Assembly (NCBI GenBank): GCA_963784355.1
Contig: CAWAQU010000006.1
Span: forward strand, 1 to 64,000
Direction of reading: 5' to 3'
Source: an uncultured bacterium
GTDB lineage: Bacteria; Patescibacteriota; JACMRA01
Length of the DNA stretch: 64,000 nucleotides
Part shown: positions 30,274 through 54,907 of the stretch, piece after piece
Layout: the number at the start of each line of letters is the position of its first letter
Numbering within the stretch: position 1 is the stretch's first letter
Program-made: the position numbers and the translations under genes
The notes under the pieces: model-generated
The model's database searches: none
The model's input: the letters and a program-made list of their open reading frames with translations, nothing else
Told to the model about the DNA's origin: nothing

Positions 30274-30282
30274 TAATTTTTA

Positions 30283-30294
30283 TTATACGAAGTC
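30283..30294 (-). other. dif-arm-like 12-mer GACTTCGTATAA (satellite 1)
   Basis: TTATACGAAGTC on + strand, intergenic xth/pgi. Confidence 0.75.
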
Positions 30295-39461: not shown

Positions 39462-39519
39462 GTTTTATAGGTCCAGCGTTAATATTACAAGTTTACACAA
39501 TTATTTCATCAAATATACA

Positions 39520-39531
39520 TTATACGAAGTC
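39520..39531 (-). other. dif-arm-like 12-mer (satellite 2) with adjacent TGTATA spacer
   Basis: Minus strand GACTTCGTATAA-TGTATA-TTTGATGAAAT. Confidence 0.75.
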
Positions 39532-42445: not shown

Positions 42446-43492
42446 TTAAAATCCCAATAAATTAATCTCCGTTTCCAAATCAAGGTTATATTTTATTTTA
42501 GCTTCAGATTTTACAGCGTTGATTAGTTTCATCACATCTTCAGCTTTTCCCTCACCCTTATTTTCAATGAAATTGGCGTGTTTATCTGAAATCATGACTT
42601 CACCCTGAGTTTTTCCTTTCCAATTAAATTCTTTATCTACGATATAACCGACGCTTGGGGTAGGGAACCCTAATTCAGCTTGTTTTTCCAATGGTATATT
42701 TTTAAATGTGCATCCTGCGGTTCTACGTGGTTGAATTCTTTTGCGTTTCATCCATTCATTTGCTACAAATTTCGCTTTTTCTATATCTCCTTTAAATAAA
42801 TTGAGTGTGACTGAAACTACTATAATATTTTTATTGTCTCTTAAAACACTTTGATCATATCCGAAATTAAAATCTTTAAATAAAAATTCTTGTAACTTGC
42901 CATCGACTAGGACTTCTGCAGAATAAAAATTGTCAGAAAAATGTTTGGTGCCTCCATGGATATTATTAAATAAGGCTCCTCCAATTGTACCTGGAATTCC
43001 GGCAAAGAATTGCAATCCGCTTATTTCATTTTTTAGTGTCCAAGCAATTGCCCAAGATAAATCTACACCTGAATCAAATTTCACTTTAGTTCTTTGGCCA
43101 GATTCTTCATAATCTAGATCTTTAAATGAGTAAAAACTTCCATCTTCTTCACCGTGTCTTGGTGGAATCCAAGGATTGTAAGCCTCTGCATCGACAGCAC
43201 TGATTTTAGCTGTCTCAGTATGTTCTAAAAGCTCAATGTTTTTGGATTTATTTATAATAACCAATCCTTTTATACCACTATCTGAGATAAGTACATTTGA
43301 GCCACCACCAAGGATAGTGTAGGGGATATCATTCTCAATTGATATATTTACAAGTTCGATTAAATCTTTAGAGCTAGTTAATTCAACTAAATATTCTGCT
43401 GGGCCACCGATTTTCCAAGTGGTGTAGGGGGCTAATGGGCAACTTAGTTTTGGATTGAACTTAGATATTTGATTTAAAAAGATTGTGTTCAT
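42446..43492 (-). CDS. murB: UDP-N-acetylenolpyruvoylglucosamine reductase
   Basis: TTWKIGGPA, GGGSNVL, GIPGTIGG, GCTFKN, KHANF, LETE. Confidence 0.95.
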   Translation of the reverse strand: MNTIFLNQISKFNPKLSCPLAPYTTWKIGGPAEYLVELTSSKDLIELVNISIENDIPYTILGGGSNVLISDSGIKGLVIINKSKNIELLEHTETAKISAVDAEAYNPWIPPRHGEEDGSFYSFKDLDYEESGQRTKVKFDSGVDLSWAIAWTLKNEISGLQFFAGIPGTIGGALFNNIHGGTKHFSDNFYSAEVLVDGKLQEFLFKDFNFGYDQSVLRDNKNIIVVSVTLNLFKGDIEKAKFVANEWMKRKRIQPRRTAGCTFKNIPLEKQAELGFPTPSVGYIVDKEFNWKGKTQGEVMISDKHANFIENKGEGKAEDVMKLINAVKSEAKIKYNLDLETEINLLGF

Positions 43493-43500
43493 AGGGTTGA

Positions 43501-43528
43501 ATTTTAGTCATTTACTAGCTTTTGTCAA
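43501..43528 (-). promoter_or_regulatory. Sigma70 promoter of murB (near-leaderless)
   Basis: TTGACA-N16-TAAAAT, 8 nt before ATG. Confidence 0.65.
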
Positions 43529-43603
43529 GTAAGCCTTATATCATATATGATATATTATTGTATTTTTGACATTAAAGGTACTAGCTGCAATTATATGATT
43601 ATA

Positions 43604-44506
43604 ATGAACTATTATATAGTTTTACCGAGTAAAAAGATACCGCAGCCCTATTTAACTTATAAGTATACTGAAGAGTTGGAAGTAGGTAGAATAATTGAAG
43701 TAAACGTTAGAAATGCTAGTGTGTGGGCTGTGGTACTAAAAAAAGTGGATGTAAGTAGCTTAAAATTTGATGAATCCAAAGTTAAAGAGATTGAAAATAA
43801 ATTACCTGTAATATTGGGGGAGCAAAATATAAAATTTTTATATGCCTTTAGTCAAAATACTTTTAACACATTAAATACAGTTTTAAATTCATTTTTACAA
43901 CCATTTAAATTATTAACAAAAAAGCAATGGTCTGAACTTAGTTCGAAACAAGTGGAATTGGCTCAAAATACCCCCCCGGCTTCTGGAAGTGGTTTCAATG
44001 TATTATTTGATCTAAATATATATACCACGTTACGTATAATATACATTATACGAAGTCATTTAAATACAACAAAAAAAAGAATACTACTAGTCTTCCCTGA
44101 AACAAAACACATCAATCGATTTTTAGATGAACTTACTAATCAACAAGATTTTACTGAAATAAAGAAAAAGCTCGACATTTTTATATATACAGGCTCTCCG
44201 GATAAAGAATCAAAGAAAACTGTGTGGAGTATTTTAAATCAAAATTCTAAGACTACTATTATACTTTCAACTCGCAGCGGACTCTTTCTACCATTTAATA
44301 AGTTGGATGAAATAATATTAGTTGATGAAGCAAATTCATTTCATATTCAAGACCAAAATCAGATTTATTTTGATACGCGTGACGTTATTTACCTAATGGC
44401 CCAGAGTTTTCAGTCCAAATTGACCTTCTTAAGTACCCTACCCTCAATTAGGCTCTATAATTTCTATCAGAGCGAAGTTTTTACTCAGTTTAAGGAAAAG
44501 TATTGA
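43604..44506 (+). CDS. priA: Primosomal protein N' (PriA), N-terminal part, degenerate helicase motifs
   Basis: LTYK...VGRIIEV 3'-binding domain; TRSGLFLPFNKLDEIILVDEA, DTRDV, STLPS; ATG 43604 preferred. Confidence 0.8.
   Translation: MNYYIVLPSKKIPQPYLTYKYTEELEVGRIIEVNVRNASVWAVVLKKVDVSSLKFDESKVKEIENKLPVILGEQNIKFLYAFSQNTFNTLNTVLNSFLQPFKLLTKKQWSELSSKQVELAQNTPPASGSGFNVLFDLNIYTTLRIIYIIRSHLNTTKKRILLVFPETKHINRFLDELTNQQDFTEIKKKLDIFIYTGSPDKESKKTVWSILNQNSKTTIILSTRSGLFLPFNKLDEIILVDEANSFHIQDQNQIYFDTRDVIYLMAQSFQSKLTFLSTLPSIRLYNFYQSEVFTQFKEKY
44029..44056. other. Putative chromosome dimer resolution site (dif), 11-6-11 bp, inside priA
   Basis: GTTACGTATAA-TATACA-TTATACGAAGT; spacer equals the E. coli dif core TGTATA on the minus strand; lies at the KOPS polarity switch. 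Confidence 0.8.
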
Positions 44507-45546
44507 TGTCTCAAAAAAAAGCTTTATTTATACATTGTAGACGTGGACTTTATCAGCTAACCAAATGCAAAAGTTGTGGTCATAGTTTTTCTTGTGATAA
44601 TTGTGATGCTAAACTGGTTACTTATAAAACAGGTGGTAGCAGTCTTGAACTTCTGTGTCACCAGTGCCAAACTTATTATAAGTATCCAAATCATTGTCCT
44701 AAGTGTAACTCAAAGGAAATATTTTCTAAATATGGTGGTATTGAAGAATTAGCGCAGTTATTGGAAAAAGAAGATTATAAACTTATTAGACTTGATCAAT
44801 CAAAAAACTTCCCTACAAATCATGCAAATGAAATAGAATCAAATATTGAGGGTAAAAATATACAAATTTCTTTTAGACAAAATAAAAATGACCTAGTAAG
44901 CCCACATTTAACCAGTAATTTAGAAGAATATGATATTTACCTACATACAAGAATATTTGACCCGCTTTTACCCTACTCTATTTTTGATAAAATAGTATTT
45001 GTACAAGCTGAGAATTTACTTGCTAGCCCTGATTATCTAGTAAGCGAAGAAATAATCAAAGCAACTGCTGAAATTTTACTTCAATGCAATACAACTAATG
45101 AAATCATATTTGATACAAATGCCCCTGAATTGGAATTATTTGAAGAGTTAAAAAAACTCCACTACGAGTATCCTGAAAATCACAAGGTCTATGAGTGGTA
45201 TTTAGAATTTTTGGAAAAAGAGAAATCAAACAGGCAAAAATACGGTTTTCCACCATTCAAGAATTTACTTTTGATTACTACTCAGGAAAAAGATATTCAA
45301 AGCTCCAATAAAAAACTAGAAACAATTACTAATTATCTGGATAAGATGAGAGGTGAGTTACCTGAAGTAAGTTGGTCTACCCCCTACCCTGCGAGGTTTT
45401 TAAAACGAAAAAATATGTATTCACATCACATTTTGCTACGTTTCCCGCGCCAATATGAACATTTCAATCTTTTAAGAAAGGAAATCGGAGAAATTGTAGA
45501 GTTATATAGAGTACAAGTAAGGCTTAACCCCAGACATTTGTTTTAG
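44506..45546 (+). CDS. priA: PriA C-terminal part (Zn-binding Cys-rich region plus CTD)
   Basis: RRG..CKSCG..CDNC..CHQC..CPKC, GGIEE, RQKYGFPPF; TGATG overlap with upstream part. Confidence 0.85.
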   Translation: MSQKKALFIHCRRGLYQLTKCKSCGHSFSCDNCDAKLVTYKTGGSSLELLCHQCQTYYKYPNHCPKCNSKEIFSKYGGIEELAQLLEKEDYKLIRLDQSKNFPTNHANEIESNIEGKNIQISFRQNKNDLVSPHLTSNLEEYDIYLHTRIFDPLLPYSIFDKIVFVQAENLLASPDYLVSEEIIKATAEILLQCNTTNEIIFDTNAPELELFEELKKLHYEYPENHKVYEWYLEFLEKEKSNRQKYGFPPFKNLLLITTQEKDIQSSNKKLETITNYLDKMRGELPEVSWSTPYPARFLKRKNMYSHHILLRFPRQYEHFNLLRKEIGEIVELYRVQVRLNPRHLF

Positions 45547-45615: not shown

Positions 45616-45627
45616 GACTTCGTATAA
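45616..45627 (+). other. dif-arm-like 12-mer (satellite 3)
   Basis: GACTTCGTATAA-TGTAT, intergenic. Confidence 0.75.
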
Positions 45628-45662
45628 TGTATTAAGTATTTTATTTCAATTCAAATTAACTT

Positions 45663-46016: not shown

Positions 46017-46075
46017 GTATCCAAAAAAATAGAGTAGCTTATTACTGTCAAATTTGGAGTTAAGTTCTACTTTTT

Positions 46076-46087
46076 GACTTCGTATAA
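46076..46087 (+). other. dif-arm-like 12-mer (satellite 4)
   Basis: GACTTCGTATAA, intergenic. Confidence 0.75.
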
Positions 46088-46133
46088 TAATTTAACATTT
46101 GACATTTGCAGTTTTGGGAGCAATATTTATGTG

Positions 46134-46589
46134 ATGTCATATTACCTTTATTCCAAGCCATTTACTAAGTTACCTAACTGGACTGAGCTATACACGGCCA
46201 AAATAATATCACTACCCAATAATCACTTAGTTAAAATACACATCGGTCAAAACTTACATTATATCACTTCGGATAATGATAACCTAAACTTTACGGAAAT
46301 ACTTACGGAAAATCTACCAATTAAGTTAGTACCAGATTCTTTAGAGTTTGAGCCAATTATTGATTACACAAATCAAACAGAGAATTATAAAATAAGTGTT
46401 AAAAAGTTCGATGAAAACGAGATTGATGAATTCCTCAAAACTCCTGATTGTTTATTTTATTTATTTACAAATGGTGACTGGAAAATTATCAGATGGGAAA
46501 TAGATAAGCAGCAATTGATATTCAAAACTCTACAAACTCTAGATGAAAACCAATTCACTATTTTTACCGAAACAAGCTATAATTTTTAA
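46134..46589 (+). CDS. Hypothetical protein
   Basis: ATG 46134 follows TTGACA-N17-AATATT; the track's TTG start at 46074 falls in the dif-like arm. Confidence 0.6.
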   Translation: MSYYLYSKPFTKLPNWTELYTAKIISLPNNHLVKIHIGQNLHYITSDNDNLNFTEILTENLPIKLVPDSLEFEPIIDYTNQTENYKISVKKFDENEIDEFLKTPDCLFYLFTNGDWKIIRWEIDKQQLIFKTLQTLDENQFTIFTETSYNF

Positions 46590-54884: not shown

Positions 54885-54896
54885 GACTTCGTATAA
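54885..54896 (+). other. dif-arm-like 12-mer (satellite 5)
   Basis: GACTTCGTATAA, intergenic. Confidence 0.75.
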
Positions 54897-54907
54897 CATG
54901 TTAAAGA

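Follow-up and report, generated by a model that had tools for sequence, protein, structure and literature searches.

A probable dif site within a split priA gene of an uncultured Patescibacteriota lineage and a polar array of single arms around it

The stretch of DNA analysed here, called the window, comprises 64,000 nucleotides of contig CAWAQU010000006.1 (assembly GCA_963784355.1) from an uncultured bacterium of the Patescibacteriota (JACMRA01). It is contig C6 of genome G000, which amounts to 1.14 Mb in 13 contigs with 33% G+C and is 81% complete. A 28-bp near-palindrome lies within a homologue of priA in this window. The site has the structure, the copy number and conservation, and the terminus position of a chromosomal dif, and genes for Xer and FtsK are present. 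Judged from these sequence features, it is probably the chromosomal dif of a class-level lineage of small-genome bacteria and would be served by a single Xer recombinase. A first-pass annotation of the window had proposed this reading, and GC skew, conservation and the presence of one xer gene in a closed relative now support it. None of the three outcomes it had named as refuting (a skew inversion elsewhere, a better dif elsewhere, a lack of nucleotide-level conservation in relatives) was obtained.

44029..44056, no strand assigned: dif-like core site of two 11-bp inverted arms and a 6-bp centre, overprinted on codons 161-170 of the N-terminal priA open reading frame (priA-N)

On the plus strand the site reads GTTACGTATAA-TATACA-TTATACGAAGT, an 11-6-11 layout of two 11-bp inverted arms and a 6-bp central region with the inner arm ends adjacent. 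Between the arms the inner seven bases pair without a mismatch, and one further pair joins positions 3 and 26, giving 8 of 11; alternatively the site can be read as CGTATAAT/ATTATACG about a 4-base centre, with an 8-bp match. The near-palindrome described in the first-pass annotation is therefore real, and the minus-strand spacer is TGTATA as it had stated. Palindromes of comparable quality, meaning the 11-6-11 layout with no mismatch in the inner seven bases and 8 or more of 11 pairs, number 51 in the 1.14 Mb genome, so quality by itself is not rare. The site goes beyond chance because its specific sequence recurs across the class and not because it is palindromic. The exact arms, CGTATAA-N6-TTATACG, occur in one copy in the window genome, and the site is the top-scoring 28-mer of that genome against a generic dif consensus; no better dif was found elsewhere in the genome.

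The site is read through in frame, as LRIIYIIRS, in the first of two open reading frames (ORFs) which together make up the PriA homologue. This ORF matches PriA_3primeBD, so the placing of the site within priA by the first-pass annotation holds.

43547..44506, plus strand: PriA N-terminal ORF of 319 aa, with the 3' DNA-binding domain (PriA_3primeBD) and the first helicase lobe
44503..45546, plus strand: PriA C-terminal ORF of 347 aa, with the Cys-rich region and the PriA_C domain

The class, which here coincides with its order, was represented by 27 species genomes, 26 of one family and one of a sister family. The exact arms were present in 25 of the 27 and in single copy in 20, and a reversed control pattern was present in none (0/27). 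When 301 genomes of the phylum were sampled, the arms were found in 16 of 17 class members and in 2 of the 284 genomes from outside the class; the control gave 1/301. The site occupies the same priA codons in 24 of the 27 class genomes and in 23 of the 26 in the family. The 24 are made up of 21 of the 25 family loci fetched around the palindrome, two genomes added by protein search (G032, contig C36, and G015, contig C118) and the sister-family genome. G001, of the same genus as the window genome, has two priA-N halves at the ends of two contigs, both stopping at the site, and neither priA-N nor the palindrome was found in G002, which is 84% complete. The priA orthologue of G017 encodes NRITDLLYS at the site position, both palindrome and peptide being missing there, and the palindrome is found on another contig in AT-rich non-coding DNA, the sole case outside priA in the class. 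The arrangement in G017 indicates that site and protein can be separated. A member of a distant family of the phylum, G227, has the same arm cores as well (C2:25413-25432); there they lie outside priA and about 0.5 kb from xer.

Alignment of 21 priA orthologues established that the conservation is at the nucleotide level. The arms, with the consensus nnT[T/G/A]CGTATAA, are essentially invariant: the 14 arm-core columns have 2.0 bits with one at 1.7, and positions 3 (T) and 26 (A) have 1.7 and 2.0 bits. The six spacer columns have 0.9-1.7 bits, and the 45-base flanks of the site have 0.53 and 0.37 bits. PriA-N identity among the relatives is 29-43% for matches spanning most of the length. The first Arg codon of the site is CGT in 21/21 orthologues, CGT being only 9.9% of Arg codons genome-wide, and the two Ile codons are ATA in 42/42, ATA being 30% genome-wide. 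These counts come from relatives and are not independent; the direction of the effect is plain, and codon choice at the site runs counter to genome usage. The spacer is variable and its orientation relative to priA is not fixed, both TATACA and its complement TGTATA being found within one genus.

The position of the site on the chromosome was taken from G018, the only closed relative, whose one contig measures 1,272,640 bp. Its cumulative GC skew is lowest at 250 kb and highest at 900 kb, and the site, at 914,117, falls within the plateau of the maximum at 896-924 kb. The share of genes on the plus strand is mostly above 0.5 over 250-900 kb, 0.22-0.28 over 900-1050 kb and 0.22-0.31 over 100-250 kb. 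The genes thus point away from each other around 250 kb and towards each other around 900 kb, which places the site at the terminus. On the window contig the skew is positive over 2-20 kb and negative over 46-64 kb, and the genes left of the site have a plus-strand share of 0.56, which drops to 0.07 over the first 20 kb on the right-hand side. The site also lies near the skew maximum on a contig of G009 (62.3 kb and 60 kb, respectively) and on the cumulative-skew plateau in G006. Local skew over ±20 kb was noisy on the contigs of ten relatives: among the seven with a right flank of at least 8 kb, the left side was higher in six and the sign went from plus to minus in four. Given this noise, the weight is put on the closed genome.

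A tyrosine recombinase match was obtained in 25 of the 26 family genomes and a long Xer-type ORF, in frames of 306-385 aa, in 23. Exactly one tyrosine recombinase match was present in 16 of the 26. Closed G018 has one PF00589 gene, at 883.7-884.4 kb and 30 kb from the site, and the count points to a single Xer-type recombinase per genome, as the proposed system implies. The xer gene and the site share a contig in five genomes, 6-43 kb apart, and otherwise lie on separate contigs. The Xer of the window genome is a 359-aa ORF on contig C4 in which the catalytic residues R..K..HxxR..H..Y can be read from the sequence. It is 63% identical to the Xer of G018, about twice the PriA-N identity between these two genomes. 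The FtsK motor and gamma domain are present in both G000 and G018.

It is proposed that two molecules of the single Xer-type tyrosine recombinase would bind one near-identical 11-bp arm each and that the pair would swap strands across the 6-bp centre, whereby chromosome dimers would be resolved at the replication terminus. FtsK, via the gamma domain that is present, probably activates the Xer reaction. Recombination between sister copies of the site would leave priA unchanged.

Such an arrangement can be compared with the known single-recombinase systems, namely XerS/difSL of streptococci, XerH/difH of Helicobacter and Campylobacter, XerA/dif of archaea and XerL/dif of Legionellales. In common with these there is one tyrosine recombinase per genome, FtsK is present, and the site at the terminus is AT-rich, measures about 28-30 bp and consists of a short centre between two similar inverted arms. 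The site of G227 adjoins xer (a 30%-identical gene), as is the case in the XerS and XerH modules according to PMC9765430. The class differs from the single-Xer systems in that its xer is 6-43 kb away or on another contig, in that a polar array of single arms is present, and in that the recombinase falls below the cut-offs of the named families XerC, XerD, XerA and XerS. A likeness to loxP had also been pointed out by the first-pass annotation. The likeness is real to the extent that a comparison of the 42-nt site with 50,697 phage records ranked sites annotated as lox first, those of P1, P7 and phiW39 (87.5% identity, 31-32 nt aligned), but it is weak, E = 0.2 not being significant alone. Like the loxP/Cre site of phage P1 the present site would be a palindromic tyrosine-recombinase core site, but unlike loxP it is chromosomal, located at the terminus and without phage context, and it is best read as 11-6-11 rather than 13-8-13.

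Single arms of the site, termed half-sites, are scattered around it with a fixed polarity, a feature that the first-pass annotation had not noticed. Those on the window contig are the following.

30282..30293, minus strand: half-site ACTTCGTATAAT, left of the site
39519..39530, minus strand: half-site ACTTCGTATAAT, left of the site, with 18 bases in common with the minus-strand reading of the site
45617..45628, plus strand: half-site ACTTCGTATAAT, right of the site
46077..46088, plus strand: half-site ACTTCGTATAAT, right of the site
54886..54897, plus strand: half-site with one outer mismatch (ACTTCGTATAAC) and the 9-base core intact, right of the site

The minus-strand arm 12-mer ACTTCGTATAAT occurs 20 times in the window genome, as against 0.43 ± 0.80 for shuffled 12-mers. 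The half-site core is TTCGTATAA, often in the form TG-ACTTCGTATAA-T, with about 20-30 copies per genome, and the half-sites are usually preceded by TG. Twelve of the 20 exact half-sites are antisense within crude ORFs, in all three frames, two are sense and six are outside ORFs. Their occurrence in all frames and mostly antisense indicates a word at the DNA level; a protein motif was considered and rejected, all three frames of unrelated ORFs being used. The 12-mer was present in 17 of 18 other genomes of the family and in 0 of 12 outside it, and is thus family-specific.

The 9-mer core TTCGTATAA has 22 copies in G018, of which 20 lie within ±260 kb of the site, an interval equal to 41% of the genome, leaving 2 copies in the origin-proximal 59%. 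Concordant polarity, meaning minus-strand copies on the left and plus-strand copies on the right, is seen in 19 of the 22 copies and in 12/12 copies of the 10-mer. The total is ordinary, shuffled 9-mers giving 27.9 ± 18.8 copies in the same genome, of which 51% are concordant and 40% close to the site. The 9-mer is thus depleted in the origin region and oriented in the terminus region. Each contig of the window genome carries half-sites of one polarity (C7 8/8, C5 3/3, C8 3/3, C11 2/2), the exceptions being C6, on which the polarity reverses at the site, and C3, which has a small cluster; C9, C10 and C4 have no copies. On the contigs of eight relatives 33 of 37 flanking copies are concordant, G006 having five minus-strand copies, the site and then four plus-strand copies. 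Each flanking arm has its outer end towards the site, opposite to the dif arm of the same side. The palindrome is therefore a core site in its own right rather than just the place where two arrays meet.

Two further observations concern individual half-sites. In G031 two of wrong polarity, at C4 42268(+) and 43060(-), lie about 250 and 540 nt from the site and form a second inverted pair around it. In the window a 171-aa ORF without Pfam matches (46074-46589) has the half-site at 46077-46088 at its start, and translation probably begins instead at an internal start codon, about 43 nt beyond the half-site. The use of half-site polarity as a chromosome frame for orienting the spacer was dropped, as the pattern is symmetric under reverse complement.

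The array has features in common with three known kinds of terminus sequence. The XDS of B. subtilis are dif-like XerD sites in the terminus region which unload Smc-ScpAB and are bound without recombination, as related in PMC11840125 and PMC10945525, citing Karaboja et al. 2021. Extra dif-like sites scattered in the terminus region are shared with the XDS as described there, but the half-sites of the present class are strictly polar about dif and no SMC was found in G000 or G018. SMC_hinge had no match in G000 (81% complete) or in G018 (a single contig), and SMC_N matched only ORFs of at most 704 aa. With Tus-Ter and RTP-Ter the array shares about 10-20 oriented, terminus-proximal sites in two opposed groups which meet at the terminus; unlike those systems, the half-site sequence is that of the dif arm and no Tus or RTP homologue was found in G000 or G018 (Tus PF05472 and RTP PF02334 gave no match in either genome, the controls matching only E. 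coli and B. subtilis, respectively). The lineage, although it has FtsK, may be one without the usual terminus and condensin machinery. The third kind comprises KOPS and AIMS, the latter being described in PMC5993296 as skewed leading-strand words pointing to dif. The reverse complement of the half-site is likewise found on the presumed leading strand of both replichores, pointing to the site and denser towards the terminus. However, the half-sites have 12-15 conserved bases and about 20-30 copies, as against an 8-mer in hundreds, and with a copy number so far too low the fit to KOPS is poor. None of XDS, Tus-Ter/RTP-Ter and KOPS/AIMS is a full fit for the array.

The single arms are inferred to be oriented binding sites for Xer monomers, which would mark or police the terminus domain. 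A tentative suggestion, which we would not put higher than a possibility worth stating, is that Xer has a second, non-recombinational job: monomers on the 20-30 or so oriented arms would form a one-way system round dif, either a fork trap or a gate keeping FtsK-type translocation towards dif. The dif would at the same time be locked in a retained gene, so that a mobile element exploiting Xer and integrating there would break priA. If the recombinase binds the array, the notion of Xer as a terminus-organising protein would be extended to bacteria without SMC. The polar array also provides a clean in silico marker of the terminus in fragmented metagenome bins.

Several observations weigh against the site being a dif. 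The terminus position rests on one closed genome (n = 1), and in that genome dnaA lies at 856,615-857,100, which is 57 kb from the site and about 600 kb from the skew minimum, the expected place of the origin. This is an odd place for dnaA if the site is at the terminus, and reliance was therefore placed on the sign of the skew and the convergence of gene strands. As a lagging-strand gene bias across a whole genome is not known, the place of dnaA is treated as an unexplained oddity. Clusters of DnaA boxes in G018 gave no clear origin, the best being four boxes at 497 kb, and marked neither dnaA nor the skew minimum. The local ±20 kb skew in G006 keeps its sign at the site, and on the 153-kb contig of G013 the cumulative skew climbs to 145 kb with the site at 28.8 kb and one half-site of wrong polarity. 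Two to three exact copies of the palindrome are present in each of G001, G015 and G032, and six genomes, these three among them, have extra copies at no more than one mismatch. The 359-aa Xer scores as XerC-, XerA- and XerD-like alike and stays under every curated NCBIfam cut-off, its bits against the cut-offs being 198/335 for XerC, 194/220 for XerA, 186/330 for XerD and 85/267 for XerS; no XerH or XerL model was among the matches. Finally, known dif sites are intergenic with flanking genes that vary, as described in PMC9765430. The present site departs from this feature of a dif, having a class-wide place inside a protein-coding gene at the same codons.

The last point would at the same time make this the first class-wide case found of a chromosomal dif retained in coding sequence. 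In the literature library searched, papers judged by title and abstract included no chromosomal dif inside a coding sequence, the relevant ones dealing with a phage attP within an ORF, and there was no description of dif/Xer for Patescibacteria or the Candidate Phyla Radiation in that library. The site and its recombinase thus offer a testable dif/Xer system for a large, uncultured phylum with small genomes.

Four other explanations of the palindrome were weighed. The one that survives best, though we think it unlikely, is that the palindrome and the polar half-sites form a terminus-organising or termination system, a Ter-like fork trap or a translocase gate, bound by another protein and without site-specific recombination at the palindrome. 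Half-sites opposed on two sides and confined to the terminus-proximal 41% of G018 have the layout of a fork trap, and a fork-trap role could be vacant given that no Tus or RTP homologue was found in G000 and G018. Against this, the palindrome has the core geometry of a tyrosine recombinase site, with a 6-bp spacer, and is not the junction of the flanking arrays; there is one conserved Xer gene nearby, and the arms of G227 adjoin xer. A terminus system of this kind is compatible with dif, and both could hold.

A role of the palindrome in transcription is very unlikely, whether as an operator bound by a dimeric transcription factor or as a promoter element, internal or antisense, that regulates priA or murB. 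Each arm does contain TATAAT, and the minus-strand arm with the first spacer base, CGTATAAT, gives a perfect -10 hexamer, to which can be added the TG often found two to three bases upstream of the half-sites. However, there is no -35 partner, promoter-like sites in 43400-44700 number 8 as against 6.4 ± 2.6 in shuffles, and murB has its own 11-of-12 match beside its start. With 12 of the 20 half-sites antisense in ORFs and 2 sense, the next gene on the same strand is mostly hundreds to thousands of bases off, and neither restriction to the terminus nor polarity about the site is a property of promoters.

A shade less probable again is an attachment or inversion site used by a mobile element, or by a 200-aa tyrosine recombinase also encoded in the window genome, and not by the housekeeping Xer. 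The gene for this recombinase, on contig C3, has three half-sites within 600 bp downstream, its orthologue in G001 has a second full palindrome at a distance of about 430 bp, and the contigs of several relatives end at or near the site. The 200-aa recombinase is present in only about 5 of the 26 family genomes, however, as against 23 of 26 for the priA site, which moreover is single-copy, syntenic and terminal. Conservation at the level of protein or RNA, through a helix required by PriA (RIxYxIR) or a hairpin in the mRNA, is scarcely credible: R-I-x-x-x-I-R is kept in 20 of 21 PriA orthologues and the RNA can form an 8-bp stem, but the codons are fixed against genome usage, G017 has a PriA without the peptide, the hairpin (-6.1 kcal/mol, z = -1.39) is equalled by 18 of 200 shuffles with arms that are invariant and not covarying, and unrelated genes carry the arm sequence in each of the three frames.

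Besides the long Xer, which is the candidate recombinase for the dif, the window genome encodes the 200-aa recombinase and a broken third one. The 200-aa protein (contig C3 14848-15450) is of FimB/FimE size and matches a tyrosine-type DNA invertase model with E = 6e-21. The half-sites downstream of it (C3 15596-15970) comprise two in a repeat of about 30 nt and a third, inverted, about 80 bp further on; the G001 orthologue is 56% identical. The C3 locus may be an invertible switch or an element using dif-like sites. The third tyrosine recombinase gene, at contig C2 23425-24070, is interrupted by three stops (one TAG and two TAA).

Contigs of several relatives break off at the palindrome itself or some 60-270 nt away from it: the starts of C35 and C9 in G001, C96 and C20 in G033, the end of C18 in G012, C119 in G017, C108 in G015 and C189 in G035. 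In both G033:C96 and G017:C119 the palindrome occupies contig bases 118-137. Such breaks could reflect population variation, integration at the site or low coverage of the terminus. One soil sequencing run contained 22% of the sampled words, and its six 151-nt unitigs do not span the site.

The host gene is itself unusual. The C-terminal PriA ORF is in a different reading frame from the N-terminal ORF and its start overlaps the stop of the latter, and the use of genetic code 4 to join the two was rejected since the ORFs are in different frames. NCBIfam PriA models match both ORFs with scores well under the cut-offs. The N-terminal ORF lacks the Walker A motif GK[ST], has DEAN at the Walker B position, and is aligned by the NCBIfam PriA model only from residue 168. 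The missing GK[ST] and the late start of the alignment fit the eroded Walker A region that had been described next to the site. With Walker A lost and the alignment starting at 168, the site would occupy the place of the helix after the P-loop, and a DNA site and a protein helix can evidently share 28 bases. The priA halves of G014 and G003 are on opposite strands, which indicates that the split is old.

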